Positions 2,660-51,650 of a DNA stretch of 64,000 nt are shown here, piece after piece. The stretch spans positions 3,488,001 to 3,552,000 of the forward strand of contig CM000151.3 in the NCBI GenBank assembly GCA_000004695.1. The letters are read 5' to 3'. A program made the translations under genes and the position numbers. The DNA comes from Dictyostelium discoideum (taxonomy: Eukaryota). The notes under the pieces are model-generated. The model ran no database searches. It saw only the letters and a program-made list of their open reading frames with translations, and was not told where the DNA came from. Each line of letters opens with the position of its first letter. The first letter of the stretch is position 1.

Positions 2660-3984
2660 TAAATAATATAATTCAAGATGAAGATTTTGTATCAATTGGT
2701 AAATTTAAATTTAATAGAAATGAATCAAATATATTAGGTAGAGGTTCAAATGGTACATTAGTATTTAAAGGTTTATGGAGTGATAAAATACCAGTTGCAA
2801 TTAAACAAATGCAAAAAGCATTCAATCCACTTATCAATAAAGAAGTTGAAGCATTAATTTCATTAACAAGTAAAAATTGTTCAAATATGATTAGATATAT
2901 TGATAAAGAGGAAGATAAACTTCATGTATATTTAGGTTTAACATTATGTGATGGATCATTACAGAATTTAGTTGAAAGTGGTAAATTAAATGATTTTGTT
3001 ATTTCATCAAACAAATCAATTATTGAACTTGCAAAAGATATTCTCTTTGGTATTCAATTCCTTCATTCTCATGATATTGTTCATAATGATTTAAATCCAC
3101 GTAATATTTTAACATTAATTGGTAAAACTAGTAATAATAATAATAGTTCAAATAACTCATTCATTATATCAGATCTTGGATTAAGTAAAATGGAAGTTGA
3201 ATCATCATATTCATTTACAAGTAATATACCAACAGGTCAAGGTGGTTATCATCCATTTGAAGTATTACAAAGTAAAAGAATGACAAAATCTGTCGATATA
3301 TTTTCATTGGGTTGTATTTTATTTTATCTTTTAACAAATGGTCAACATCCATTTGGTAATGATAAATTATTTCGTATAGTTAATATAATTTCAAATAAAA
3401 TGAATCTAACTCCATTGAATTCAAATCAATTGGCTTGTACTTTAATTAAATCAATGATTTCAAAAGATGAATCAATTAGACCAACCATCCAAAATGTTTT
3501 AAATCATCCATTGTTTTGGAATTTAGAAAAGAAAATACAATTCATTGATGCAGCTTTAAATTTAATTAAAGAACCTTCAAACTCAAGTTACAATTCAAAG
3601 TTAACAAAACAATTAAATCATTGTGATGATAATGATGAACCATTTTTAAATGATTCTTGGAATCATTTAATTGATGTAACCAATCTTTTAACACCAACAA
3701 AAGGTTCAAAAATAACCATTTCATATCAATATGATAAAGTTAGAGATTTAATTAGATTCATTAGAAATACAATTGCTCATCATAAAGAAATTAAAAGAGC
3801 AATCATTCAACAATTTCAAAATCAACAATCACGTCCAAATTTAGAAGTTTTAGAGTATTTATCAAGTCAAGATTCTATCTTATTATATTTTGAATCAAAA
3901 ATTCCAAATTTAATTCATCATATTTATCAACAATTAAAACAATATTCTTTAACTATTGATTATTTATTTAATTTTTATAATTAA
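34..3984 (+). CDS. Ire1/RNase L-like protein: N-terminal region, Lys/Glu-rich coiled-coil, poly-Asn/Gln tracts, C-terminal protein kinase domain fused to KEN (kinase-extension nuclease) domain. Dictyostelium irl (IRE-like) family type. May have an upstream exon outside the window, because the frame is open to position 1.
   Basis: A 1316-aa ORF. Kinase motifs: GRGSNGTLV (Gly loop), [22 protein letters not shown] (catalytic loop), ISDLGLSK (DFG-equivalent), HPF...LQSK (APE region). KEN motifs: [19 protein letters not shown] and [18 protein letters not shown], compare Ire1 HPFFW...LLRALRNKKHHY. Paralogous to the ORF at 52442-56569. Confidence 0.85.
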
Positions 3985-4930: not shown

Positions 4931-5444
4931 TGTTTTTTTATTTTTTTTTATTTTTTTTAAATATCAATGTTTAAACTATATATAAAATTATTATATATAA
5001 ATAAATTTTTCAGAATTTGTCGTTCGTTTTTTTTTTAAAGTTTGTTTTCGAGTTTTAAAAAAAAAAAATTAAAAAATAAAATAAAAAATTATTTAAAAAA
5101 AAAAACAAAACAAAAAATGTTAAAAATATGGATATTTGCTGATATTAAAATGAAAAGAATAATTTTTTCAATTGAAATTTCAAACAAAATTATTATTGAT
5201 TTGTTTAAAAAATCTTGGTGGTATAATTTCCCAAAAAAAAAAAAAATTAATTTTAGAATTTAATTATTTTTTTTTTGCCTGTTTTTGTTTTAATTTATTT
5301 TTTTTTTTTGACCAAAACACCTAGTTTTTTTACTTTTCAGATTTAATAAAAAAAAAATATATATATATATTTACTACAACATAATATATAGTTATTTCTT
5401 TTTTTTTTGTTTTTAAAAAAATTACAACTTTTTTTATTTATTTA

Positions 5445-5473
<29 letters not shown>

Positions 5474-5479
<6 letters not shown>

Positions 5480-6770
5480 AATTTTTCTAATCCATTCCTT
5501 ATGATCAATAAGAGTTATATCTTCTTCATTTGAAATTGATTTTAAATATTTTGTTAGATGGAATAAGACATTATCACCATACTTTTTAGCATCTTTAATT
5601 TTAAAAGGTGGAACATGTACACCATTCTTTGGATTCATTGCAAAGTTTTTGGAGAGATCATCAACATGTAAAGTATTTTTCATACTAAAGAATTTACCTA
5701 AATGTTGATGTTTCCAAATTACTTCCAATGCTTTTACATTATGTTTAATTTTAGTTCTCTCTTTACCATTGATGGTTCTATAGGTTGTTACCTTAAACAT
5801 TAATGTTTGATCCATTACAAAACAAATTTTAAAACGTGGATTAGTTAATAATCCCAACTCTGTTAATTTAATTTCAATCCATTTCCAACTAGTTTGAGAC
5901 CAAATTCCAATATCATAATGTTGATAGGATTGTACTAAAAATTCTTCTAAATGTGGTCTTTTCATATCTATATTTATTTAAAAAAAAAAAAAAAATTAAT
6001 TATTTATTTTATTTTATTATATTATTTTATTTTATTTATTTTATTTTATTTTATTTTTATTTACTTTCAACATCTTGATCTTTAAAATCTAAAATTGTAT
6101 GATCTAAATCTAAAACTAATAATTTTTTATTTGGTCTTGGGTCATTAATTAAAGAGATATCATTTGAACGTTCAATCATTGCAAGTAATTGATTTTTATT
6201 TTTTTCAATATGAGAGATTTCATCAGAATCTGGGATATAATCAAATTCGAAATCATTGAATACCTCATCGGTATCACCACTTGTTTTTGGAACGTCAGCA
6301 ATAATATTTGACTCTGGTGTACCCATCATAATGATACTATGATTATCTTGAATTGATAATGATTCTATTATCATTTCATCAGTTGGTTGTTTACCTTTTG
6401 ATAATCCTAAAATTTTTTGTCTCTTTGATAATACATTTGTCATTGTTTCCAATTGTCTCTTTAAATCAAAAACTGTTGAACTCTTTGAAATCAATACTTT
6501 ATATTCTTTACCATTCCATTTGGTTTTTATTGTAATTTTTGAATTTTCTTCATTTATTATTGTTGTTGTTGTTGTGGTTGTTTTTGTTTTTAAATCAGAG
6601 TCATTTATAATATTAGTTGTTGTTGTTGTTGTAGTTGTAGTAGTGGTATTAGTTGTAGTGTTATCATTTGTGTTATTACTATTAGAATCTGTTGTTGTTA
6701 TTATACTATTTATTGTTGACTCTGTTGTTGTTGGTGGATTAGTTGTTGAGGATGAAACTATTGTATCCAT
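5474..6770 (-). CDS. UBLCP1 homolog (ubiquitin-like domain-containing CTD phosphatase 1). Two exons, 6770..6065 and 5967..5474, with an AT-rich intron 6064..5968 (GTAAAT...ATATAG).
   Basis: Exon 1 encodes a Thr/Asn-rich N-terminus, a UBL domain (KWNGKEYKVLISKSSTVFDLKRQLE...IMMGTP) and an FCP/SCP-type DxDxT motif (LVLDLDHTIL). Exon 2 (MKRPHLEEFLVQSYQHYDIGIWSQTSWKWIE...) aligns with human UBLCP1 [29 protein letters not shown]. The phase-1 junction gives VE-N-MKRPH in frame. Confidence 0.85.
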
Positions 6771-11368: not shown

Positions 11369-12451
11369 TTAATAATCATTGATATCTTGATATACATAAT
11401 GTAATTGAATTGGTTCTGTTAATTCCAAAGGGGTGTGACAACAACCAGTTTTTGGAGAGCAAGAATCAATTGTACAATCATTACCATCATCACAAGAAAT
11501 TGGAGAATGACAACAACCAGTTGTTGGAGAACAAGAATCTATAGTGCAAGCATTACCATCATCACATGAAATTGGTGAATGACAACAACCAGTTTCCATT
11601 GAACAAGAATCTGCAGTACATTGATTACCATCATCACAACTAATTTGATTATGACAACAACCAGTTGAAGGGGAACAAGAATCGGTAGTACATTGATTAC
11701 CATCGTCACAAGAAATTGGAGAATTACAACAACCAGTTTCAATTGAACAAGAATCGGTAGTACATTGATTACCATCATCACAGGTTATTTGATTATGACA
11801 ACAGCCAGTTGAAGGCGAACAAGAATCAAAAGTACATTGATTACCATCATCACAAGTTATTTCATTATGACAACAACCAGTAGACTCTAAACATGAATCA
11901 GTGGTACATTGATTATTATCATCACATGAAATTGGTAAATTACAACAAGCACCAGTTGAATTTGAACAAGTATCAGTGGTACATTGATTAATATCATCAC
12001 AAGAAATTGGAGAATAACAACATTCACCAGTTGAAGGTAAACAAGAATCAACAGTACAAGCATTACCATCACAACATTCTACATTTGTATGGGTACAACA
12101 ACCAGTTTCTTTTAAACAACCATCATTGGTACAAGCATTACCATCATCACATGAAATTGGGGAATAAAAACAACCACTAGATTTTGAACAACCATCAATG
12201 GTACAAGCATCACCATCATTACATTCAATATTGATATGTGTACATCCAGTTTCAATTGAACAACCATCAGTAGTACAATGATTACCATCATCACAATTTA
12301 TTTCAATATGGGTGCAACATCCTTGAATACATAAATCTGTTGTACATTGATCACAATCATCACAATCTAAATTACAATCACATAATTCTTGGCAATTAAT
12401 AATTAAAATTATTATTAAAATTATTAAAATAAAAAAATATTTTTTAATCAT
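11369..12451 (-). CDS. Secreted Cys-rich protein built from about 13 tandem Dictyostelium CTDC repeats (C-x-D-G/D-N-x-C-T-x-D-x-C units)
   Basis: N-terminal signal peptide MIKKYFFILIILIIILIINC. Repeats of about 24 aa (SPISCDDGNQCTTDSCS...TGCCH) give 72-bp DNA periodicity. Confidence 0.8.
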   Translation of the reverse strand: MIKKYFFILIILIIILIINCQELCDCNLDCDDCDQCTTDLCIQGCCTHIEINCDDGNHCTTDGCSIETGCTHINIECNDGDACTIDGCSKSSGCFYSPISCDDGNACTNDGCLKETGCCTHTNVECCDGNACTVDSCLPSTGECCYSPISCDDINQCTTDTCSNSTGACCNLPISCDDNNQCTTDSCLESTGCCHNEITCDDGNQCTFDSCSPSTGCCHNQITCDDGNQCTTDSCSIETGCCNSPISCDDGNQCTTDSCSPSTGCCHNQISCDDGNQCTADSCSMETGCCHSPISCDDGNACTIDSCSPTTGCCHSPISCDDGNDCTIDSCSPKTGCCHTPLELTEPIQLHYVYQDINDY

Positions 12452-13161
12452 TTTATTTGTTTATATTTATATTTAATTTATTTGTATTTATTTATTTGTA
12501 ATTATATTTTAATATTATAATTATTATTAATAAAATTATTTTTTTAATTTTTTTTTATTTTTTTTATCAATTTATATTTAAAAAAGATAAGTTGACATAT
12601 TTTCTTAAATTAATAAATTTTCTATTTATTTTATAATTTATTTTATAATTACTTTATTAATATAAATTATTAATTTATTATTTTAAATATTTTTTATTTA
12701 AAAATTTTTCCAATTCCAGTCATTTTTAATAAAACAATATTTTAATTTCTTAAATAATCCATTTTAAGTTTGTTTTATAATAAAATGATACTTTTGAATG
12801 AATTTAATTGTTTTTTTTATTTTTATCACTTTGAAATTCTTTTTTTATTCATTTTTTTTTTTTTTATTTATTTTATCACTTTCATTTTTATTCATTTTTT
12901 TTTTTTTTTTATTTTTTATTTTTTTTTTTTTTTTTTTAATTTTTTTAATTTATTTTTATTTTTATTTTTATTTTTATTTTTTATTTTGTTATTCATTATT
13001 TTTTTTATTATTTTTTTATTATTTATTTTTTATTTTTTCACACTCACACTCTTATTTTTTTATTATTTATTTTTTATTTTTTCACATTCACCCAAAAAAA
13101 AAAAAAATTTGGCACATTAACAGTATTATTAATAATTTCAAAATTTTCAAAAATTCATCAA

Positions 13162-22435: not shown

Positions 22436-25400
22436 TTAAATTGGAAGAGGGTTCGGAGCTGCTGGGGTTTGCCAGGCTTTGTTGAATTTGTATTTGTGAA
22501 GATCTTGATTGGTGTTTTTTAGTATTGCTTCGTCGTGTTTGATTTTCTTTAGTGTGATGAATTTTTCAGTTTCGATGAGATTTAGTAATTCTGTTTCTAT
22601 GACCTTTTGCTCGAATTTTGGCTCTGGTTTGCTTTCATCAGTGTTGAACAATTTGTGACAGATTATCTTCCATAATTGGTGTGCTATTATTCCTATGAGA
22701 TTGGGGAAGATTCTCTCAGTTCTGTTGTATTTTGATATGTCTAAGGTATCCATTGACCATCTTTGGATTTTGATGAATGATAATTTGTTAACTGTTGATA
22801 TGATGGTTTTTTCAATATCTAGGATATCTTGGCATAGAGTGAAGAGGTGAGAATAAGGGTCTCTGAATAGGTGGCCACAGATCTTGCATCTGGTGTCTCT
22901 TTCGTGGTTGATACCTGGAAGTGATCTTGAGAAGAATCTGAAGAGGGTGTTTCTACCTTTTTGGTGAGAAATGCTGTTGATGTTTATGAATACTTTGGGT
23001 ATTGCTGTGTTGTATCTCACCGCCCATAACTTCTGCCATTCTGTTCTTCTTGGTGTTGGGTGTCTGTCTTTGATCATGAGTTCGTAAATTTCTTTCAGTT
23101 TTAGTGGTTCATCATTGTCGTTTCTTATACAGTCTGGAAGTTCATTTATCTTTGGATGGTTTTGGTAAAATTTGACTCTGAATACACCCCAGTGTCTGCA
23201 CATATCGTTGAGGGTTGAAGTGTGGGCTTTTTTCTACTTAATTGCTCCATGTACCATTCTTGTAAGGTATTGTTGTTGTTGTTGTAGTTGTTATGGAGTA
23301 GCCTGTTCATGTACCAGATTTTGAATGCTATATGTCTTAGTTCTATATCCCATAATTTTATGCCTCCTTCTTTCCAATCTGCATATGCTCTGTCTATTTT
23401 CATCATAGTTTTGTATTTTCTCTCTTCTGTATATGTATTCTTAACTGAGGAGAATAAGAACCATCTGGTCATGTTATTGATTTCCTCAATTTGTTCTTCA
23501 TTTAGATTATCCATGTATTGATGGTATGTTAATTTGGATAGAACGTATGTTTTGAGAATTGTCATCTTTGCCTTCATCGTTATTGCTTGTGATTTCCATT
23601 TGATTAGATTGTTTTTCATTTCTTGGATTAAAGTGTTGTATTTTGAATTTAAACCTGTTTTGGTGAAATTGAGGCCAAGATATCTTTCTGGGACTGTACT
23701 CTCTTGGAATGGTAGATCGTGTGGTTTATCTCCTATTGCTATCATTACTGTTTTCTCTTTGTTTAACGATGATGACGTTGCTGAGCAGTACTTTTGGATT
23801 TTAGTATTAATTTTCATTAGTTCTTCTGTGGAGTTTGTAAAGGTTGCTATGTCGTCAGCAAATGCAGTGAGTTTTAATGATTTGGAATTTGGTAGAGTGA
23901 AGCCTTTGATTGTATTATCATTGATGATATCTATTAGAAGTGGTTCTAAAACTAGAGCAAAGATTGTTGGTGATATTGGGTCTCCTTGTTTTGTTCCTGT
24001 TCTGATTGTTATTCCATTGACTAAAAAGTCGTTGATCTTTATTTTGTTTTTAGTATCTTTGAGTAGGTTTAGTAGGATCGCTGTGAATTTTGGGGGGATA
24101 CCAATATGCTCTAATGTTCTTGTGATACTCTTGTGGCTGATTGAATCGAATGCTTTGTTAAAATCGTAAAAGGTAATGAGTGTATTGTTCTTTCTTTTGT
24201 TACTTATTTCTATTACTTCCTTCATGATCTGAATATTGTCTTGGATGAACCTGTTTGGAACAAAGCCGTTTTGAAATTTGTTGATAATTTTACTGGTGAT
24301 ATCTAATAATCTACTGTTGAGAATTTTGCTTAAAATTTTGTAATCTGTATTGAGAAGGGTGATTGGTCTTCTATTTGAAATGTTTAGTTCATCTCCTTTT
24401 TTGAATATTGTTGTTATTACTCCTTCTTTGAATTTTGTGGGGATTTCTTTCTTATTTGTGAGGAGGTCGTTGAAAGCTATAGTCAATATTCTTGCTATTG
24501 AGTTGATGTGGTACTTGTAGAATAGTGCATTGATACCGTCTAAACCTGGAGATTTGTGGATACTTGAAGTTTTGATTGCTTTGGTCACTTCATGTATTCT
24601 TATCGGTCTGTCTATCTCGAGTTTCTTGATTAAATCAACGTCTACTTCCCATTTTTCTAATAACTTCTTGTGGGTTTCTTCGTTATCTTCTTTCTCTTCA
24701 TATTGATCTTGATAGAATTCAACAAATCTTTTTGCTATGTTCTCTTTATCTGATATGGTCTTATTATCTTTATCTTTTATTTGGAATATTGATTTATCTT
24801 TGGCTCTGGATTTAAGGATACTTGTGAGGTATTTGCTTGGTGTTTCTTGATGCAGGTGGAGTTTTAATTTTATATCCCATGCTTTTACCTTTCTTTCTTC
24901 TTCTAATATTCTACTTATTTCTTCATTGAGTTCTTTTCTCATCTTTGGAATGATATCACTATTTCCAAGTAATTTGTGGATTACGTATTTTCTTTTGTTC
25001 TTTTCTTTCTTTATTTTGTTTTGTTCTTTTTTTAAATAATCTCTGATGACATTATTTTTAAATTTCGTCCATTCCTCCACTGATTTGATCTTATCTTTGT
25101 TCTTACTGATTAATTCTGATAACCCATCATGTATATGTTTGTTGTTGAGAATTTCTTTACATAATGTCCAAGGGAGTCTTTCTAGTTTGGTTGTTGTTGT
25201 TGTTGTTGTTGTTTCTCTGTTGGTTTGTATTGTGATTGTGATGGGAAAGTGATCTGATTTGTTGAATACTGTGTTGTGGACTACCAGTTTTGAATTTTGG
25301 TTTAGTAGTGTTGGATGACAGTAGATTCTATCTAGTCTCTTCATTGATCTTGGAAATGTTGGAGTGTTTTCTTCAATACCAGTATCTAGTAGCATGTCTT

Positions 25401-25881
25401 GGTCTATTATTTTACGTAATTCAGTACCGAAGAAGCTGTTGCAATCGTGGTTGTTATTGAAGTCGCCTGCTATTATTTGATGGTTGATTGAATTATATTT
25501 TTTAAACAGTGATTTTGAGTTGATTATGAAGGTGTTTCTTTCAGATATAGTCGCTGGAGCATTGATCAATAATATGTTGATAGAATTAAAGGAATTGTAT
25601 TTAATTGATAGTATTCTACCATCATCGTCTTTGAAGTTTATTGATATGTGGCCTTTTCTTGTATCTCTATTTTCTATTGCTATGCCAGTTCCTTTACCTG
25701 AACCATGATCTATTCTTTCAAAGTTGAACATTGTTTTGTGGTGGTTGAATCCATTGAAATTAGTTTCAGTTAGGAGTGTTAATTGAGTGCCAATTCTTTT
25801 TATCGTTTCTTCTGTTTTATTCTTAGCGTTGGTTGATTGATTACCTCTGCAGTTCCATAGTAATAATTTTAATTGTTCCAT
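22436..25881 (-). CDS. TRE3-like ORF2: apurinic-type endonuclease + reverse transcriptase + C-terminal CCHC-like domain. It is split by an apparent frameshift at 23146-23203 into a 911-aa ORF and a 255-aa ORF.
   Basis: RT motifs FYDFNKAFDSISHKSI, QGDPISPTIFALVLEPL, AFADDIATF. C-terminal CKICGHLFRDPYSHLFTLC. The endonuclease N-terminus starts LLLWNCRGN. Confidence 0.7.
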
Positions 25882-25950
25882 TATTTTCTAATACTACTGG
25901 CAATTGGAAACTTGGTACCATTGCTTGTAGTAATTTTATTGATAGGTTTT

Positions 25951-25985
<35 letters not shown>

Positions 25986-26762
25986 TTTGTTTAGGTTGTT
26001 GATTGTTGTATTGCTTGTTGGTAATTGATGTGTGATTGTTGTTGGTGTGGTTGTTGTTTGTGTGGTTGTTATTGGTGTGGTTGTTATTGGTGTGGTTGTT
26101 GATGCATTAGTTGTTGGTGGAGTTGATGGTATTGGTTTAGTTGTATTTGTAGTTGTTGGTTGTTGATTTTTATTACTTGTGTTTTTTTTTTTTCTAACAT
26201 CTCTTATTTCTTTATTGTTATATTCAGAGATGAAGGCTCTTATTGGATGCTTACTACCTTTTATAGCATCAATGTTTGTTTTAATGATTGAGATATCATC
26301 TTCTTTGTTAAATAATAGAATGCATGAATATCTAATCACATCTGGTAGCATTACTATGTTGCATTCATCTATTAGTAATGGCTCCAATCCCCAGTTTTCT
26401 TTTACCATTTGATTGTTTATTTTTTTTATTATGTTTTTTGTAAATGTGTAAAAGTGGACATAGTGATATCCTGGGGTGTAAAGTATGAATTTTTGCAGTG
26501 GGAAATCTTCATACTTGAAAGTGCTGTAACACTCGTGTAATAATGTGAATTTTTCTTTTAGTATTCTACCAAATACTGTTATACCTTTTTGTCTTCTGAC
26601 AATGTTAAGAGTACCATTAACTATGAAATTATCTATTAATTTTGTTGAATTACTATTTAATTCCAAGGTATGTGGGTAGAATAACCTTATTTGAATAGTT
26701 TTTTTATTTAACTCTTCTTCGCCTAAGTTGAGTTCACCTTTAAGTTTATCGAAAAAATTCAT
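25881..26762 (-). CDS. TRE3-like ORF1 (293 aa) with a Thr/Pro-rich C-terminus
   Basis: First ORF of the element. Its stop overlaps the ORF2 ATG (TAATG). Confidence 0.6.
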
Positions 26763-27060
26763 TTTTTTTTTTTTTTTTTTTTTTTTAGATTATTTTTATT
26801 ATTTTTTTTTTTTAATTATGTGTTTATATAAAAATATTTTTGATTTTTATTTTTATTTTTTTTTTTCTTTATCGTTTATTCAGATCTATTCTTATTCCCA
26901 ATCCAAGGATTGAAGGAATTAGTGTGTAGAGTAGATAGATTGAATGTAGTTGATGTTAGATTGATGGATATGTTTTTCTGTATCTAGTATCCGTTTGATC
27001 AACTGTAGGCTTTTAATTTTTTTAAAATTAAATCAATATGGAATTTAATTCTTTAAAATA

Positions 27061-27071
27061 GGAATCGAACT
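27061..27071 (-). promoter_or_regulatory. External B box (ex-B box, GGTTCGAnTCC-like) about 30 bp downstream of tRNAi-Met copy A
   Basis: Minus-strand AGTTCGATTCC. A downstream ex-B box is typical of Dictyostelium tRNA genes. Confidence 0.55.
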
Positions 27072-27100
27072 AGCGACATATTCTGTATAATTTTAAAATT

Positions 27101-27172
27101 TAGCTTCTCTAGGTTTCGATCCTAGGACCTCGAGGTTATGGGCCTCGCACTCTACCCCTGAGTTAAGAAGCT
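27101..27172 (-). tRNA. Initiator tRNA-Met (anticodon CAU), copy A
   Basis: A1:U72, C33 in the loop CCCAUAA, T-loop GGATCGAAACC and discriminator A. Near-identical to the human tRNAi-Met core (GGCCCATAACC...GAGGTC...GGATCGAAACC...GCTA). Confidence 0.85.
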
Positions 27173-27492
27173 GTCGATTCAAGCTAACGAATCTTATGAT
27201 TTTTCTGTAATAAAGTTACTCTATAAAATTAATAGATATTAAATATGCATATTACATTACTAATTATAGTTGACACACATTTAAATAATATAATAATAAT
27301 AATAATAATACTGTCAACTCATTATAAATAATATAAATACTAAAGAATAATTTTATAAACAATATTGAATATTATAAATATAAACTAATATTAAATAAAG
27401 ATAACAAAGTATTATTCAATTATATAATTATTAATTATATATTTATAAAGCTAACAAGCTTTATTACATTTCATATCAAATAACTAAATGTT

Positions 27493-27646
27493 GTCTGAAG
27501 TGTTCTAAAAAAAAAAAAAGGTAAACCAACCCCTCTTTTAGGGACCCTGTAAAAAAAAAATAAAATAAAATGAGATCTAGCATCTCAAGGAGAAGCAAAT
27601 AATTGCGTTATCCAATTCAAAAAAAAAAAAAAAGTCTGAAGTGTTC
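27493..27646 (+). mobile_element. Solo insertion of a roughly 100-bp A-tailed retro-module flanked by a perfect 13-bp target-site duplication GTCTGAAGTGTTC (27493-27505 and 27634-27646). It is either a SINE-like element or a TRE5 C-module-only copy.
   Basis: Structure: TSD, A13, GGTAAACCAACCCCTCTTTTAGGGACCCTG..GAGATCTAGCATCTCAAGGAGAAGCAAATAATTGCGTTATCCAATTC, A15, TSD. Other copies lie at 36352-36457 and 29805-29903, behind TRE5-like ORF ends. Confidence 0.7.
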
Positions 27647-27950
27647 CGGGATGTTTATGGTCATGAGTTTCGATTTCCAGTTGTGACTGAATTTTTCGAG
27701 TCTTCTTTTTATTGATGCGGTCCTATTGATTGACTCTCGGTTATCAGTGCATCTTAGTTCTTGACGTAGTTGCTTTTCTACTATCTTTCTTGTTCTATCC
27801 CATTCGGCATCTCTCGCTTTTTTGATTTTATGAATTATTTGGTTCTCTGTTATTATTGTAGTGTTATCGTTGAATTTTATTTGGTTTCTTCTGTACCATA
27901 TCGATTCCATAATGGCTGTCTTTTTTTCCAAGATATTCTAATTTGGAGAA
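27647..27950 (-). mobile_element. Fragment of a TRE5-like ORF2 3' region, interrupted by the module insertion
   Basis: The encoded peptide ...AEWDRTRKIVEKQLRQEL...EKFSHNWKSKLMTINIPEHF is homologous to the ORF ends at 29877-30200 and 45729-46247. Confidence 0.5.
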
Positions 27951-28019: not shown

Positions 28020-28110
28020 AACAGGGATGAAAACTATATATGTTAATATATGTCGCTTATTCATTGGCGATTATTACATTTTCATCATTTGGATATACAA
28101 TCTTAAGAGA
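28020..28110. repeat. Inner inverted-repeat arm, about 85% identical to the reverse complement of 29440-29530
   Basis: cagggatgaaaactatatatgttaatatatgtcgcttattcattggcgattattacattttcatcatttgg versus the reverse complement of 29461-29530. Confidence 0.55.
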
Positions 28111-28291
28111 GATATACAAAAACAACCAACAAAAACAACTTCTTTTTGATTATTTCATTTTTCATATAAAAAGACTTAAAAACAAATAAATAAAGTCACT
28201 TATTTAAAAAAGCCATCTTTTTATTTTATTTTAATTTATTTTTTTTTTTTTGAAAATTTTGATTGGTGTAAACTTCTATTGGGGTTGGCGC

Positions 28292-29439: not shown

Positions 29440-29530
29440 GGAAATTATTATATATTCAAATGATGAAAAATGTAATAATCGCGAATAATTAAGCGACATA
29501 AATTTATATTTAAGTTTTTATCCCTGGTAA
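29440..29530. repeat. Inner inverted-repeat arm, partner of 28020-28110
   Basis: See 28020-28110. Confidence 0.55.
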
Positions 29531-29793: not shown

Positions 29794-29901
29794 TTTTTTT
29801 TTTTGAATGGAATAACGCAATTTTTAGTTGCTTCTTCTTGAGATATAACTCATTTTATTAATTTTATTATTAGATATTACAGGTGCCTTTTAAGGTTGTA
29901 T

Positions 29902-29954
<53 letters not shown>

Positions 29955-30202
29955 TTGGGGGGTGTAGAGTGTGTTTAGTGACGTAATATATTTGTTGAGG
30001 TTTGATGGTAGTGCTACTGTGTGTAGTGGTGAGTTCCAGTGTTTGCTAAATCTTTCGAGTTGTAGGGAGATGATGTTTTTGAATTTTTTTGTTTGTTCGT
30101 TGTTGGTTGCTTTTTTTTCTTGTCTGATTAGTTTGTATATGTTGTTTTTTGTTTTTCCCAGGCTGCTGTTATTTAATAGAAATTGGAATACGACGTTCAT
30201 TA
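29794..30202 (-). mobile_element. 5'-truncated TRE5-like 3' fragment. Layout: ORF2 end, A-tract (29904-29951), diverged C-module copy (29805-29903), A-tract.
   Basis: ORF end ...ERFSKHWNSPLHTVALPSNL. The module copy GAATGGAATAACGCAATT... is about 80% identical to the 36352-36457 and 27519-27620 copies. The 5' end abuts the boundary of inverted-repeat arm B at 30203. Confidence 0.55.
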
Positions 30203-30625
30203 CACAAATGTAATAAAGCTTGTTAGCTTTATAAATATATATAATTAATAATTATATAATTGAATAATACTTTGTTATCTTTATTTAATATTAGTTTATA
30301 TTTAATATTCAATATTGTTTATAAAATTATTCTTTAGTATTTATATTATTTATAATGAGTTGACAGTATTATTATTATTATTATTATTATATTATTTAAA
30401 TGTGTGTCAACTAAAATTAGTAATGTAATATGCATATTTAATATGTATTAATTTTATAGAGTAACTTTATTACAACAAAATCATAAGATTCGTTAGCTTG
30501 AATCGACAGCTTCTTAACTCAGGGGTAGAGTGCGAGGCCCATAACCTCGAGGTCCTAGGATCGAAACCTAGAGAAGCTAAATTTTAAAATTATATAGAAT
30601 ATGTCGCTAGTTCGATTCCTATTTC
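30203..30625. repeat. Inverted-repeat arm B, partner of 27056-27477
   Basis: See arm A. Confidence 0.8.
30508..30579 (+). tRNA. Initiator tRNA-Met (CAU), copy B
   Basis: Identical to copy A in reverse complement. Confidence 0.85.
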
Positions 30626-31559: not shown

Positions 31560-32321
31560 ATGTCTACCCAAGGTTTAGTTCAACTTATCTCAAATGCTCA
31601 ATGTCATTTAAGAACCTCAACCAATTACAATGATGTCCACACTCAATTTAATGCTGTTTTAAACTATAAAAACAAAGGTACCAATACTATTGATGGTTCA
31701 GAAGCTTGGTGTTCATCAATCGTAGATACCAACCAATACATTGTTGCTGGTTGTGAAGTTCCACGTACTTTTATGTGTGTTGCTCTCCAAGGTCGTGGTG
31801 ATCATGATCAATGGGTTACATCATACAAAATCCGTTATTCATTAGATAATGTTACCTGGTCTGAATATCGTAATGGTGCTGCTATTACTGGTGTAACTGA
31901 TCGTAACACTGTTGTTAATCATTTCTTTGATACTCCAATTAGAGCTCGTTCAATTGCTATCCACCCATTAACCTGGAATAACCACATTTCATTAAGATGT
32001 GAATTCTACACTCAACCAGTACAAAGCTCAGTCACTCAAGTTGGTGCAGATATTTACACTGGCGATAACTGTGCCTTAAATACCGGTTCAGGTAAACGTG
32101 AAGTTGTTGTCCCAGTTAAATTCCAATTTGAATTTGCTACTCTCCCAAAGGTTGCCCTCAACTTTGATCAAATCGATTGTACTGATGCTACCAATCAAAC
32201 TCGTATTGGTGTTCAACCAAGAAACATTACCACCAAAGGTTTCGATTGTGTTTTCTACACTTGGAATGCTAACAAAGTCTATTCATTAAGAGCTGATTAC
32301 ATTGCTACTGCTTTAGAATAA
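31560..32321 (+). CDS. dscC: Discoidin I chain (N-terminal discoidin/F5-8 type C domain plus C-terminal H-type lectin domain), first gene of a tandem pair. The symbol is tentative, based on the literature statement that two discoidin I genes are closely linked.
   Basis: A 253-aa [27 protein letters not shown]...[10 protein letters not shown]. Recognised as discoidin I from memory. Confidence 0.9.
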
Positions 32322-32666
32322 ATTTTTAATCTTATTATTAAAATTGTAATTTAATTTTTAATCAAATTTAATAAAAAAAAAAAAAAAAAATCCAAATTCA
32401 AGATTTTGTTTATTATATTTTTTCCATTTCTAAACTATTATTATTAAATTTGAAATAAAAAATGATAAAAAAAAAAAAAAAAAAACTGTATTTTTATAAT
32501 ATCCAATCTAAATTAATTATCGTCAATCTTTAAGGAATAAAAACTTTTTTTTTCATTGAAAAAACAATAAAAAAAAAATAAAAAAAATCAATAAAAAAAA
32601 AAAAATCATAAAAAAAAAAAAGATATAATTATTTTCAATCATAAAAATTCCAAATTTACAAATTTA

Positions 32667-32704
<38 letters not shown>

Positions 32705-33044
32705 TTTAATAATCAAACCATTACAAAAAAAATTTACAATCATTTTAATTTTATTTTTTTTTTCACACCAATTGCGACAGCTAGGAAAAATCTGAAAAGT
32801 GGGGTGATTTTTATTAAATTTTAAAAAATTTATACCCATTAATTTTTTCAATAAAAATAGTTGGTCATTTTACAAAATTAAAAAATTAAAAAAAAAATAA
32901 ATTAAATCTTTAATTTTAATTGGAAAAAAAAAAAAAAAAAAACTATAAAAAGAAAATATGATTTTCATTTTAAAATCATTAAACTGAAAAATTAAAATTT
33001 CATTTATACAAATTATCTTTTTTTAAATTCAACACACAATTAAA

Positions 33045-33806
33045 ATGTCTACCCAAGGTTTAGTTACACTTCTCGGAAATGCTCAATGTCATTTAAGAAC
33101 CTCAACCAATTACAATGGTGTCCACACTCAATTTAATGCTGCTTTAAACTATAAAAACAAAGGTACCAATACTATTGATGGTTCAGAAGCTTGGTGTTCA
33201 TCAATCGTAGATACTAACCAATACATTGTTGCTGGTTGTGAAGTTCCACGTACTTTTATGTGTGTTGCTCTCCAAGGTCGTGGTGATCATGATCAATGGG
33301 TTACATCATACAAAATCCGTTATTCATTAGATAATGTTACCTGGTCTGAATATCGTAATGGTGCTGCTATTACTGGTGTAACTGATCGTAACACTGTTGT
33401 TAATCATTTCTTTGATACTCCAATTAGAGCTCGTTCAATTGCTATCCACCCATTAACCTGGAATAACCACATTTCATTAAGATGTGAATTCTACACTCAA
33501 CCAGTACAAAGCTCAGTCACTCAAGTTGGTGCAGATATTTACACTGGCGATAACTGTGCCTTAAATACCGGTTCAGGTAAACGTGAAGTTGTTGTCCCAG
33601 TTAAATTCCAATTTGAATTTGCTACTCTCCCAAAGGTTGCCCTCAACTTTGATCAAATCGATTGTACTGATGCTACCAATCAAACTCGTATTGGTGTTCA
33701 ACCAAGAAACATTACCACCAAAGGTTTTGATTGTGTTTTCTACACTTGGAATGAAAACAAAGTCTATTCATTAAGAGCTGATTACATTGCCACCGCTTTA
33801 GAATAA
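33045..33806 (+). CDS. dscD: Discoidin I chain, second tandem gene, about 97% amino-acid identity to the first. Symbol tentative.
   Basis: A 253-aa [43 protein letters not shown].... It differs from the upstream copy at a handful of residues (Q8T, I10L, S11G, D25G, V33A, A238E). Confidence 0.9.
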
Positions 33807-36313: not shown

Positions 36314-36802
36314 TTTTAAACATATGCACAGTTTTTTTTTTTTTTTTTTTTGAATTGGATAACGCAATTATTATTTGCTTCTCCTTGAGATGCTAGATCT
36401 CATTTTATTTTATTTTTTTTTTTTTTTACAGGGTCTCTAAAAGAGGGGTTGGTTTACTTTTTTTTTTTTTTTTTTTTTTTGTTTCGAATTTTGAATTGTA
36501 TTATTACTTTTGATTAAAACATCTTTTTTGTCCAAACTTTTTTCTAAATCTTTTTTTATTTTATCGTCTGGTTCGTGATTGATGTTTATGACGTATTTGA
36601 ATTGTTTTTTTTTTAATTGAGTTTTATCCACAATTTCGCTTATTTTTTGTAGGCATTTGTGTTGCTTAATATTTGTGGTGTTGTTTGTGATTTTCATTTT
36701 ATTTTCTTTCTATTTTTTTTATTTTTCTTTAAAAAGTTAAAAATCTGGAAATTTTCTGATTAACTTGGGTTCCAGGTTTTTTTTTTTTAAACATATGCAC
36801 AG
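36314..36802 (-). mobile_element. 5'-truncated TRE5-like insertion (ORF2 end, A-tract, C-module 36352-36457, A-tract) flanked by an 18-bp TSD TTTTAAACATATGCACAG (36314-36331 and 36785-36802). Its 5' end lies about 50 bp upstream of tRNA-Leu.
   Basis: The ORF end ...DLEKSLDKKDVLIKSNNTIQNSKQ is homologous to 46330-46420. Divergent orientation and roughly 48 bp distance from the tRNA are the classic TRE5 pattern. Confidence 0.7.
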
Positions 36803-37440: not shown

Positions 37441-37629
37441 TGGGTCAACTGACATAATTTGCGATATTTGCATGGGAGGTTGGTCAGCTGACATTATTAA
37501 CATTGTTCGCAAGGGAGGTTGGTCAGCTGACATTATTAACATTGTTCGCAAGGGGTAGTTTAGCTGACATTATTAACAATATTGGCATGGGAGGATTGTC
37601 AACTGTCATTATTAACAATATTCACAAGG
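37441..37629. repeat. Minisatellite, about 4.5 tandem copies of a 40-41-bp unit (GGGAGGTTGGTCAGCTGACATTATTAACATTGTTCGCAAG)
   Basis: Direct tandem repeats read in the sequence. It lies immediately upstream of the discoidin pseudogene fragment. Confidence 0.7.
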
Positions 37630-37631
37630 TC

Positions 37632-37770
37632 ATGGTGCTGCTATTACTGGTGTAACTGATCGTATCACTGTTGTTAATCATTTCTTTGATACCCCTATTG
37701 ATGCTCGTTCAATTGCTATCCACTCATTAACCTGGAATAACCACGTTTCATTAAGATGTGATATCTATAG
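37632..37770 (+). pseudogene. Discoidin I pseudogene fragment (about 135 bp of the discoidin-domain coding region, no start or stop)
   Basis: [43 protein letters not shown] matches discoidin residues 106-148 with several substitutions. It is about 90% identical at the DNA level to 31876-32010. Confidence 0.75.
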
Positions 37771-45682: not shown

Positions 45683-46457
45683 TTTATATGAACACCATCC
45701 AAAATTAACTCCTGGCCAAAAAGAAATAATGATCAAAATGAATAGCAAACACCTTCCATTTAAAGAAATTAAAAAAATAATAAACATGGAAGGTAGAGAC
45801 CTATTATGGAGATACACACAGAAAGCACTACCAAAAATATACAACATGCCATGCCAACAGTATGGGGAAGATGAGACTTCAGAACATATATTCTTCAACT
45901 GCAAAGCCCACATCAAAAACACACAAGAAATCTTCAACTACACATTAACCAAGTGTGGACACACCTGGAATGTTAAGATTTTAAACCATCTACAAATTGC
46001 ACTAATATCCAATTTAATAGCTATTATATTCGAAAAAATTTGGCACAAAAGAAACAAACTCATCCACGATGAAATAGAAATAGTAATTCATAGACAACAA
46101 GTCATACGTGAACTAATTAAAACACAAAGAGTTGCATGGGATAGGACACAAGCGGTTATAAACAAAACATTAAGAATCAAATCAAAGCAATGGCCAGAAG
46201 AACAAAATAAATTAGACTCATTAATCTCTAAAGTTATTACAATTTAACAGACAATGGAACTCACCTCTTCACGCAATAGCACTTCCCAAACATCTCAAAA
46301 AATACAATAATTCACTCAGTACTCTCTATAAATGAAAAAAAAAAAAAAAAAAAAAAAATATAAAAAAAGATTTAGAAAAAAATTTGGACAAAAAAGATGT
46401 TTTAATCAAAAGTAATAATACATTCAAAATTGCGTTATCCAATTCAAAAAAAAAATA
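45683..46457 (+). mobile_element. 5'-truncated TRE5-like element (ORF2 C-terminal Cys-His region, then 3' end ...CAAAATTGCGTTATCCAATTC(A)10) whose 5' end is about 46 bp upstream of tRNA-Glu
   Basis: ORF 45729-46247 (CQQYGEDETSEHIFFNCKAH...) is homologous to the ORF2 C-terminus at 22436-23203 and to the fragments at 27617-27931 and 29877-30200. A short TSD-like TAATTATTT flanks it. Confidence 0.65.
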
Positions 46458-47639: not shown

Positions 47640-50600
47640 ATTGTAGTTTAAATTGGATCTAACCCTATCGGCCGAGGTTGGAGTAGTTAATAGATTTGAG
47701 TTCGCTCAAATCTAAGGACTATAAAAGGAAACTAGGTTTCCAATTCAACCTCAGTAGTAAATATATACAAACAATAAAAACACGATAGGGCTACGGTCAT
47801 TAATTAATTTTGTGTACATTTATTTCTTAAATAATTAATCATTTTACTTTAATAATAGAATAAATAAATAATTAAATTTTATTAAATAATTTATTTTAAG
47901 AGAATGTCAACTAATAATAACGAAGATATTGATAATGATGAATTGCAACAACAGGATAATGAGGAACAACAGCAACAACCACAGGTATCAACATTCAATG
48001 AACAGCAACGTCAGATAAGGGAACAGCAGCAGGTAATAGATAAACAAAATCAACTTCTTCAACAACACATTCAATTAATAAATCAACAATCTCAACAACA
48101 ATTGAATAATCATACGACACCACCATCATCACCCAACATTACAACACCAATAACTTCAGCAGCAATAACCAACACAATAAAGAAATCATTAGGAAAAATT
48201 AACACTGATGATACCGACCACCAGTTGTTACAGTAATGATTACAATTAAACAATAATAATTAAAATAATAATTTATTTAGTTTTATATAATTTAGAGTTT
48301 TCATTCGAAACTTCTCGGTCGAAAATTGTAAAAACTAAAAAAAAATAAAGTTAGTTCTGATTGACCTTTACAGCATTCTTATAATATTAATTGTTTTCCT
48401 TTGTTTACTAAGACAAAAACATTAAAGCATAACCCAAACACACTCAAACTCAAACACATATCAACAATTGATGGTAGAGCTATTTTAGCAGACGTTATAT
48501 TTCCAAATCAATTACCAATTGGTATTCTTGGAATTTATGCACCAGCATCAAATGATACCATCAAAAAGAATTCATAACAACTTCACTACAAACACTTCTC
48601 CACAACCACTCAACAAACCCAATACCAAACCAATCCCAACATGTATCTATTATCGCAGGCGATTTCAACTGTATCCACAACGACAATTCACTATTAGACG
48701 ATATTATCCAATCCTACACATACCAACACCATCTAATTGATCAAGGTGAATTTAAAAACACTCCAACTCATACACATGGCAACAGATTAGATAGAATATA
48801 TACTCATTACAATAGAATAGACCCTGAAAATTTATACACAAGTCCACCAAATTCCATCTTCATTATCAGATCATAATCCAGTATCAACAACAATTTCTTC
48901 ACCTTTTCAAATAAATAAACATAAGAAAAGATGGATATTATCACCTGGTACTGCAAATGACCATGAAGCAATCAATATTATCAATCATTTAATAACTAAT
49001 CACAATAACACATCAATCAATCAATTTACAAATTGGTCAAAAGTAAAATCAAAAATTATTAAAACTCTAAAAAACTATCAATATAACAAAGACAAACAAA
49101 CTCAACGTGCAAAACAAATACTATTAGAAAAAGCAGCAAAATTTAAACATCTTGAAAAACAATGCATCGCTGAATACAATATTATATGTAACAAAAACAA
49201 ATTACATCAAAACCACACAAACAAATAAAGGAGAAATACCTATAAGTATCTATCAGCAATACTAAACAAAGATCAAAAGATGCAAAAATTACCTTCTGAG
49301 AATACTTCCCTTCATCGTCAACATCAACCAAACTGGTTTCGTACCCTACAGATTTATCATAGACAACATCATCAACATCAATGAATTAATCAACTACCTC
49401 AAATCTAAAAACCTCCCTGGTAACATCACACTATTTGACTTCTTTAAAGCATTTGATTCTCACGATAGTATTAAAAGAACATTAATTCATATTGGTATAC
49501 CAATAAAATTAATAAATATAATCCACAAGCTTTTATCTGACTCACAAGCAAAAATTTCAATTAATGGTAAAACGACTAGAAAATTCGATATTAAAAGTTG
49601 TGTAAAACAAGGTGACCCAATCTCAGCCACTTTATTTGTAATTGTAATTGAAATATTAGCAAGAACAATAAATGCAGACAATACAATAATTGGATTACCA
49701 ATTTCACCCAATCCACAAATTAAAATCAAATTTACCCAATTTGCAGAAGACTCTACAACATACAACATCAACTACGAACAACAACAACAATCAATCAAAC
49801 ATTTCGATAATTTCTGCGCTTCAACATCATCATCATTAAATTTTGACAAAAGTGCAATAATAGAAATCAACCCCCACAAAATCACTGATAAACACTTAAT
49901 AAACAACATTCCACAATCAAAAAGAATACCAATAACCAAAAAAGATCAATCAGAAAGAGTTCTTGGCTATTTCTTTAATCATAATGGTTTACATAGGAAA
50001 TTACCAGAAACAATGAAAACACTGATCAAATCATTAGTACTATGGAAAACTAGTGGCACAACATTAAAAACAAAAACAACCATCATAAACACTTACTCAC
50101 TATCACCAATAACATATTTATCATACCTTGAAGAATTTACAAAAGATGAAGAAATTCAAATTAATAAATTAATCTCATGGTTTATGAATTCTCCCGCAAA
50201 TTCTGAATCACCAACTCTCAATACCAATTCCATTGAAAACAACACATCAACCATCCATTCACGTGCAAAAATACCTTTGATGTGTTATGATAGATCATTA
50301 AAACTATTAAAAGAAGGTGGTTGGGGTATGTGGAATATACAATTACGACAAGCTGCTCAAAAGATTTGGATATACAACATATTTTTACAAATGCATAAAT
50401 CTGCAAACAATTCAATATACATGATAAGTTGGATGGATCAAATCATCAACAAGTCAATCTCTTCTCCATTCCTTATAAAAATCAAAAAAGAATGGGAAAA
50501 CTATGCAACTCAAATTAGATATCTAAAAGATAAAATTCAAACCCTACAACCAATATTAATAAAAAACCAAACCACTCAAACATTAACCACAAATAATATT

Positions 50601-51650
50601 TCACTACCACCAACACTCAAAGAAATCTACTCGACAATACTCAACAATCACCAATGTAAATCAAAAGACTATATAGGAAAGAAATATTCAGATCTACTTC
50701 TTACTTCGCACCAACAATCAATATAACTATTATGGAAATACACATACGACCAACTATTTGTCAAAATTCAAAAATTAAAAGATCCAAAAGGCCGTGATAC
50801 AATGCAAAGATTCCATGCTAGATGTCTTCCGATTAATCATCTACACAACAAAGTTTGCTCCATTTGCAACAATGAAATGAATAATGATCCCTATGGTCAT
50901 TTGTTTTTCAATTGTCAGCACACAATCAACTTCATAAACCACGACAAATTAAAATATTTTATATATAAAAATTGCAATGGAAACAAAAACTGGTCACTAA
51001 CAAAAAACCAAACAACAAAATTATACACACTCATTTATAAACCACAAACAAACAACAAAGCATTTAAACCAGATCCAACTATCAATATTAATTTTCATTT
51101 TGCAGAAAACGCACAATATAAAAAATACAGGTTCAACTGGAATTATATAAACACAAATCTTGATCTAGTCAGAACACATGCATATTGGAACATAATCTCA
51201 TTAGTTATTCACCAAATATGGATATGGTTATGCAAATCATTATTTGACATCAATATAACTCAATCAATTGACAATTGGAACAACCAAATAAACAACACAA
51301 CACTAGATTATGATATATTAAAATCAAAATGGCACAAGCTAATAAGATTGGAATATTCCAGAACATTATCAAACTTTAACCAATACTCAATTAAAAACAA
51401 CCTCACAAAAACTCAAAAAGAAACCCAATGGCCCGAAACCATCAAAAAATTTAAAAAAGAATGGAGCATAAACACAAACCAATGCTGAAACCAATTCCAA
51501 CAATTACACCACCAATTAATTATTAATTACCTAATCTAAAATAACATACCATTTTAAATTCACAAAAACTAAAAAACCTAAAATAAATAAATAAAGTACT
51601 AATTGTATACTACAATAGTTTATTTATATCAAAAAAAAAAAAAAAAATTA
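47640..51650 (+). mobile_element. Degenerate TRE3-like non-LTR retrotransposon. ORF1 (47904-48236) is intact, but ORF2 is broken by many stops and frameshifts. It ends in A16, about 50 bp from the 3' end of tRNA-Phe, tail to tail.
   Basis: The frame-shifted RT region reads LFDFFKAFDS...QGDPISATLFVIVIEIL...FAEDSTTY (YADD degraded to FAED). The ORF2 C-terminal pieces (MKTLIKSLVLWKTSG..., EGGWGMWNIQLRQAAQKIWIY, CSICNNEMNNDPYGHLFFNC) parallel the ORF2 at 22436-25881. Confidence 0.65.

Follow-up and report, generated by a model that had tools for sequence, protein, structure and literature searches.

The insert and its surroundings

The window, i.e. the whole 64-kb stretch of Dictyostelium discoideum DNA that was analyzed, has a G+C content of ~20% and matches contig JBTAPE010000001.1 of the comparison assembly, D. 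discoideum GCA_054883475.1, at the discoidin I locus. Two discoidin I genes lie there in tandem at 31560-32321 and 33045-33806 (F5/8 type C and H-type lectin, 253 aa, 91.5% DNA identity), and a third is present as a 139-bp fragment at 37629-37767, adjoining a tRNA-Leu/TRE5-A site. Non-LTR elements with EN and RT, TRE3-like in appearance, occupy 22436-26762 (-) and ~47858-51488 (+), flanking tRNA-Met and tRNA-Phe on the 3' side, and the two are in opposite orientations relative to their own tRNA genes. Ten ORFs of the window had no exact match in the protein collection. Between a tRNA-Met gene and a fragment of a TRE5-B-like element lies a short A-tailed insert flanked by a target-site duplication (TSD), and other TRE5 copies elsewhere in the window were used for comparison:

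27101-27172, minus strand: tRNA-Met gene, the nearest Pol III gene, to the left of the insert
27493-27505: left copy of the 13-bp TSD, GTCTGAAGTGTTC (two copies per window, 0.01 expected)
27506-27506, plus strand: extra T at the 5' junction (C precedes the A-tract in full-length copies)
27507-27519, plus strand: A13, rest of the B/C oligo(A) of TRE5-A.1 (reference ...attcgaaac(A)21gtaaac...)
27520-27618, plus strand: TRE5-A C-module body as assigned by alignment to reference 5705-5827, 99 nt, GGTAAACC...CCAATTC
27571-27613, plus strand: two 3'-terminal stem-loops (predicted fold -11.7 kcal/mol, z -2.8)
27619-27633, plus strand: terminal poly(A), A15, read from the sequence
27634-27646: right TSD copy, which is also the final stretch of the TRE5-B-like host fragment
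27634-27925, minus strand: host fragment, a TRE5-B-like ORF2 C-terminus (...NIPEHFR...), 5'-truncated, and 3'-truncated at the TSD
29795-30205, minus strand: TRE5-C-like ORF2 end + A47 + diverged C-module + A10 (C-module identity to TRE5-A, 78%)
36332-36772, minus strand: 5'-truncated TRE5-A, A10 + 3' B-module + A23 + C-module + A20 (98% identity to reference 5389-5827)
45690-46453, plus strand: TRE5-A truncated within ORF2, ~52 bp upstream of tRNA-Glu

An earlier sequence-only reading of this DNA had described an A-tailed module of roughly 125 bp, flanked by a perfect 13-bp TSD, that moved as an independent retro-insertion. The duplication and the independent movement hold: GTCTGAAGTGTTC occurs at 27493-27505 and 27634-27646, on either side of the unit, and nowhere else in the window with one mismatch or fewer (0.01 expected by chance). 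The size is 128 bp as read from the sequence (T, A13, the 99-nt body and A15), and the site as a whole reads ...aaatgtt GTCTGAAGTGTTC T A13 GGTAAACCAACCCCTCTTTTAGGGACCCTGT A10 TAAAATAAAATGAGATCTAGCATCTCAAGGAGAAGCAAATAATTGCGTTATCCAATTC A15 GTCTGAAGTGTTC cggg.... This perfect 13-bp TSD, accompanied by an A15 tail, falls inside the range of ~10-16 bp published for TRE5-A (PMC9012585). Non-templated nucleotides are reported to be frequent at TRE5-A 5' junctions (PMC5391098), and the T at 27506 is probably one of them.

The 5' end of the insert (+) faces the 5' end of tRNA-Met (-), which is the canonical orientation of TRE5-A (PMC9012585). The distance between the two, 334 bp, is outside that usual for TRE5-A, which in the reference genome lies 37-211 bp from tRNA genes, most often (59% of copies) at 47±3 bp (PMC5391098). 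A search near the insert for a closer Pol III target found no B-box or Rfam RNA gene. The spacer upstream of tRNA-Met contains a 25-nt imperfect direct repeat, AAGCTAAC..., at 27181-27205 and 27448-27472 (72% identity, 267-bp spacing). A 267-bp insertion into the spacer, bounded by these repeats, could conceivably have displaced the TRE5 copies from the gene; without it the distance would be 67 bp. Because the locus is rearranged, how far the insert now lies from the tRNA gene does not reliably tell how far away it integrated.

On its other side the insert adjoins the edge of the TRE5-B-like host fragment, against the statement that TREs do not integrate into each other (PMC5391098). This fragment has 93-98% amino-acid identity to copies in two loci sampled from the comparison assembly (L023, 2402-2680, and L024, 12050-12139), the nucleotides being near-identical up to ...CCGGAACACTTCA, and its homology ends <10 nt from the left TSD edge. 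The TRE5-B-like family itself continues for ~300 bp past this breakpoint and ends without a C-module. That a rearrangement breakpoint coincides with the integration site is odd, and unusual for non-LTR copies. Twin priming and inversion between two C-modules were considered for the oppositely oriented fragment and rejected, as they fit neither the perfect TSDs nor the arrangement.

The surroundings contain several further duplicated or isolated pieces. Within a 97% inverted duplication (27056-27471 and 30624-30206), two tRNA-Met genes stand head to head, and an external B-box-like AGTTCGATTCC lies downstream of each. The site of the insert is between these two genes, a short way upstream of the discoidin I gene pair (31560-33806). 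The inner ends of this outer duplication coincide with a different TRE5 insert on each arm, and it may be that gene conversion was limited by these heterologous inserts. A second inverted pair (85%) is located at 28022-28101 and 29447-29526. An isolated TRE5-A A-module, the promoter module, lies at 28118-28261 (+); it is 84% identical to the reference, no further element sequence follows it, and no tRNA gene was found 47 bp to its left.

Identity and 3' hairpins of the insert

TRE5-A was formerly called DRE, and its C-module and 5'-truncated copies in D. discoideum are described by Siol in 2011 (PMC3159450) and reportedly by Marschalek in 1992. According to its published architecture, TRE5-A.1 is arranged as AB-ORF1/ORF2-BC, where the B-module (290 bp) holds the ORF1 start and is present a second time in the 3' UTR, and the C-module (134-137 bp) forms the 3' end (PMC3159450). 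In TRE5-A.2 most of ORF2 is missing, and a deletion of 72 bp in BC has spared the final 87 nt of C; the C-module of TRE5-C is 78% identical to that of TRE5-A, and TRE5-B is without a C-module (PMC3159450).

A full-length TRE5-A.1 from the same genome served as the reference (L013 12031-17857, 5827 bp; ORF1 of 444 aa, ORF2 of 1047 aa with reverse transcriptase (RT)). The insert aligns to positions 5705-5827 of this reference, i.e. from within the B/C oligo(A) to the final base, with ~90% identity to the C-modules of full-length TRE5-A.1 copies (89% to the L013 reference including indels) and about 91.5-92.6% identity to the window copy at 36332-36772. Relative to the full-length copies, the C-module body has lost 3 nt (ATA), has an internal A-run that is shorter, and carries one A-to-G change, which is private to the insert. 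The match to the published C-module was checked by means of the four mutated positions, the 78% identity between TRE5-A and TRE5-C, and the TRE5-A.2 deletion. By this alignment to the 3' end of a full-length element, the body of the insert is identified as the TRE5-A C-module, in line with the earlier assignment of the unit to TRE5. Since the insert holds the stretch that is deleted in TRE5-A.2, its template was apparently of the A.1 type. In the AX4 protein DDB_G0280833 the reading frame runs through B-An-'VNQPLF', the equivalent of GTAAACCAACCCCTCTTTTAG. A search with the 22-mer AATTGCGTTATCCAATTCAAAA gave three chance matches, in ciliate-like actin genes of JGI metagenomes, and none in GTDB genomes.

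The sequence-only reading had also placed the same unit directly behind the poly(A) of ORF2 ends at 36352-36457 and 29805-29903, and had recognized a native TRE5 terminus with the same 18 nt at 46399-46430. Each of these claims stands in part. The 36332-36772 copy does carry a related unit, but it is the 3' B-module and not an ORF2 end that precedes it. This copy has an 18-bp TSD, CTGTGCATATGTTTAAAA, at 36314-36331 and 36773-36790 and lies 45 bp upstream of tRNA-Leu; an ORF1 start in its upstream part was considered and dropped, as the duplicated 3' B-module accounts for the sequence. There is indeed an ORF2 end next to the second unit, but the unit (29805-29905, minus strand) belongs to a diverged (~78%) TRE5-C-like copy, and the 78% identity of its C-module matches the published TRE5-A/TRE5-C figure (PMC3159450). 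The third copy shares the 18-mer, which lies at 46428-46445, but its terminus is not native, most of B and C having been lost; its 3' end consists of UTR-A23 followed by the final 75 nt of B, the final 18 nt of C and A9.

Two hairpins are predicted for the last 54 nt of the insert, one pairing UGAGAU with AUCUCA (27571-27587) and the other GGA..GCAA with UUGC..UCC (27589-27613). The same fold is predicted for the 36332-36772 copy, and for the TRE5-C-like copy with a compensatory change from GGA/UCC to GAA/UUC. Retrotransposition requires stems I-III, which lie within the final 54 nt of the C-module, and the last 87 nt have been found sufficient by experiment (PMC3159450). The published mutated residues T15, C26, A35 and C38 (PMC3159450) lie in these stems when counted on the 36332-36772 and full-length copies, and the predicted hairpins of the insert correspond to the published essential stems I-III. 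The stems are intact in the solo copy, its ATA deletion only making the loop of the stem-III hairpin 3 nt shorter. The proposal that the insert pinpoints the minimal 3' recognition unit for TRE5-type retrotransposition is not borne out, as TSD-flanked stubs of 12-45 nt exist and the unit is already known from mutagenesis, which maps the hairpins to the last 54-87 nt. The integrated length records where cDNA synthesis or joining ended and not which RNA was recognized, and hence the insert defines no minimal unit.

Truncated copies and the origin of the insert

To place the insert among its relatives, every TRE5-A-type 3' end was catalogued in 20 loci (0.42 Mb) of GCA_054883475.1 that had been fetched through TRE5-A-derived proteins. 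Including the window, this gave 44 ends: three full-length TRE5-A.1, 17 TRE5-A.2, seven copies with the 5' end within ORF2, five that begin near the ORF2/B oligo(A) or within B, and 12 that comprise C alone or less, the shortest being 12-18 nt. Most of these 12 are flanked by TSDs. Besides the insert, these short copies are the following:

L014 ~13002-13150: second solo C-module with the same oligo(A) start (A27 + C + A26, TSD GTTTTGTAATTAAA)
L017 ~12013: short copy starting 19 nt before the B/C oligo(A)
L024, L015 and L023: three short copies, starting with AGAGACCCTGT, ACCCTGT and CCCCTGT, respectively
L017 12206: 39-nt stub
L014 (four) and L024 (one): five stubs of 12-60 nt

Further stub starts are TCTCAAGG and AATTGCG. 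Taken together, the copies form a continuum in which the insert has neighbors of similar and of shorter length. Five 3' stubs of ~17-125 nt lie in series at L014 12985-13420, and the TSD GTTTTGTAATTAAA recurs at the bounds of each. The series, which is the signature of repeated integration at a single tRNA-proximal site, occupies the far end of a TRE5-A array of 9.5 kb that lies upstream of tRNA-Thr. A different kind of array is found at L009 228-10360, which reads ORF1/ORF2-B-ORF1/ORF2-B-C, i.e. two complete units that share one B-module with no C-module between them, an arrangement that points to unequal recombination of a 5' with a 3' B-module.

The insert is very probably a dead-on-arrival, extremely 5'-truncated copy of TRE5-A that arose through target-primed reverse transcription. 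Such truncation was one of two alternatives offered by the sequence-only reading, and it is favored by the continuum of short copies with varied 5' ends. That the insert is simply one more 5'-truncated TRE5 insertion, which the same reading had named as the finding that would speak against anything special, is largely what was observed, with the caveat that starts in the A-tract are possibly enriched. As we infer the template and the order of events, a TRE5-A.1-type RNA with an entire C-module and the B/C oligo(A) before it would have been bound by TRE5-A proteins at its 3' hairpins, and the endonuclease would have introduced a bottom-strand nick at the left end of GTCTGAAGTGTTC. Reverse transcription would then have copied the poly(A) tail, gone on through the 99-nt C-module and halted within the internal oligo(A). 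The cDNA end may have been joined, with one untemplated T, to the top strand nicked 13 bp away, and repair would have produced the 13-bp TSD.

The other alternative offered was a SINE-like element, whereby an RNA made of the A-tract and C-module would constitute a separate non-autonomous lineage that uses TRE5-A proteins via the common 3' hairpins. We regard this as very unlikely. The insert (window 27507) and the solo copy at L014 ~13002 do both start in the B/C oligo(A), a 3-nt deletion and an A10 run that are absent from the sampled long copies link the insert to the L015 stub, and the element is recognized through the hairpins of its C-module (PMC3159450). Nevertheless, the 5' ends differ among the remaining ten of the 12 short copies, which use at least seven different positions, and the deletion-sharing L015 stub begins inside the C-module, not at the A-tract. 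At least three C-module variants are present among the short copies, and two of them, (i) and (ii), are also found on ORF2-bearing copies; the L014 solo copy, for example, has variant (ii), GCAACTAATAATTG, as do the ORF2-containing L007 and L016. The ATA deletion, which was seen in the window copy and the L015 stub (n=2) and in no long copy of the sample, sits in a slippage-prone AATAATAAT repeat. As the 5' ends of the short copies differ and two of their variants also occur in long copies, the pattern in the sample looks like a truncation continuum and not like a SINE lineage. Likewise, a pattern search for a B-box within 27506-27633 found no match, no sense promoter was found, and Rfam found no tRNA-, 7SL- or 5S-like RNA in the insert. 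The only C-module promoter known drives antisense transcription, and when ORF1 is left out of a reporter bearing the C-module, 99.5% of the activity is lost and 0.5% remains (PMC3159450). A secondary origin, in which a longer TRE5-A was inserted and the sequence upstream of the B/C A-tract was lost later by deletion or recombination, would suit the rearranged state of the surrounding 3 kb, with its inverted duplication, 3'-truncated TRE5-B-like fragment and A-module-only piece (28118-28261). The perfect TSDs directly abut the insert, however, so that the deletion would have had to end exactly at the TSD boundary, and we consider this origin extremely unlikely.

The 5'-truncated TRE5-A copy favored here resembles several known systems to differing degrees. 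With other 5'-truncated TRE5-A copies it shares the species, the C-module sequence, the 3' hairpins, the poly(A), a TSD within 10-16 bp and the tRNA-facing orientation (PMC3159450), but it differs from the known copies in its distance from the tRNA gene (334 bp, not ~47 bp), in adjoining another TRE fragment, and in its private A-to-G change and 3-nt loop deletion. TRE5-A.2 has the same C-module 3' end as the insert and is likewise non-autonomous, needing the TRE5-A.1 ORF2 protein in trans. Unlike the solo C-module, it has its own A-module promoter, an ORF1 and a defined structure, it has been amplified (17 copies in the sample), and it has deleted a stretch that the insert retains. Pairs of SINEs and LINEs with shared tails, such as eel UnaSINE1/UnaL2 (cited in PMC3159450), also comprise a short A-tailed unit with the 3' stem-loop of the partner LINE, but the insert is without an internal Pol III promoter, and the sampled copies show no common 5' end and no evident set of private mutations that would define a lineage. 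Mammalian dead-on-arrival L1 copies show the same early-ending target-primed reverse transcription, with a TSD, a poly(A) and a 5' junction that has untemplated nucleotides or microhomology; in contrast to L1, TRE5-A recognizes its own 3' hairpin, not poly(A) alone, and targets Pol III genes.

The insert is thus a known element behaving in a known way, since 5' truncation of TRE5-A is already documented and has been called 'typical of TRE5-A elements' in the literature. Being without a sense promoter or ORF, it cannot propagate. At most, it may add to the locus a predicted binding site for CbfA, a host factor published as binding the C-module, and a putative weak antisense promoter. It is a datum on the drift of integration sites away from tRNA genes in rearranged TRE graveyards, and on whether the truncation points of TRE5-A cluster at internal oligo(A). 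The stubs of 12-18 nt with TSDs in the sample bear on the minimum length of a product of target-primed reverse transcription.

Internal oligo(A) tracts as candidate truncation points

The sole, mildly novel lead is a possible hot spot for truncation or template switching at the oligo(A) tracts of TRE5-A. It is possible, and we put this forward tentatively as a refinement of the truncation reading, that RT stalls, dissociates or jumps template preferentially at the ORF2/B and B/C oligo(A), with the corollary that BC-only, C-only and internally deleted copies would be commoner than chance predicts. The 5' ends at window 27507, L014 ~13002 and window 36772 (A10 before B) lie in A-tracts, and junctions of internal deletions fall in the ORF2/B A-tract at L019 ~11995-12530, L017 ~4970-5434 and window 46337-46360. 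Starts in A-tracts account for ~3/20 truncated copies, whereas these tracts make up ~3% of the last 1.9 kb (rough Poisson p ~0.03), in a sample that is small and biased, the loci having been seeded on intact ORF1. Against such a preference, A-runs at junctions are ambiguous in a genome of 78% A+T, where they may be TSD ends, untemplated A or slippage, and most truncation points fall outside the A-tracts, a second cluster being found near CCCTGT, 80-87 nt from the 3' end. Among the 12 short copies, the B/C A-tract is the starting point of only two.

A stronger form of this idea is that the oligo(A) tracts are built-in stop or switch points for RT, by which C-only, BC-only and A'-BC mini-elements would be made systematically and from which both the AB...BC architecture and a nascent C-only lineage with the ATA deletion would have come. 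We consider it unlikely.

The copies at L019 ~11995-12530 and L017 ~4970-5434 are TSD-flanked mini-elements of ~0.53 kb that consist of the first ~65 nt of the A-module, a long A-run, B, an A-run and C. They are 5'-complete, internally deleted, non-autonomous derivatives of TRE5-A and are far smaller than TRE5-A.2. Another group of internally altered copies, comprising window 45690-46453 (+), L008 ~12180-12270 and L023 ~3100-3620, has B fused to the last 11-27 nt of C via microhomologies (AATT/AATTG). As these fusion copies are without the essential hairpins, they likely arose by template jumping or by later deletion.
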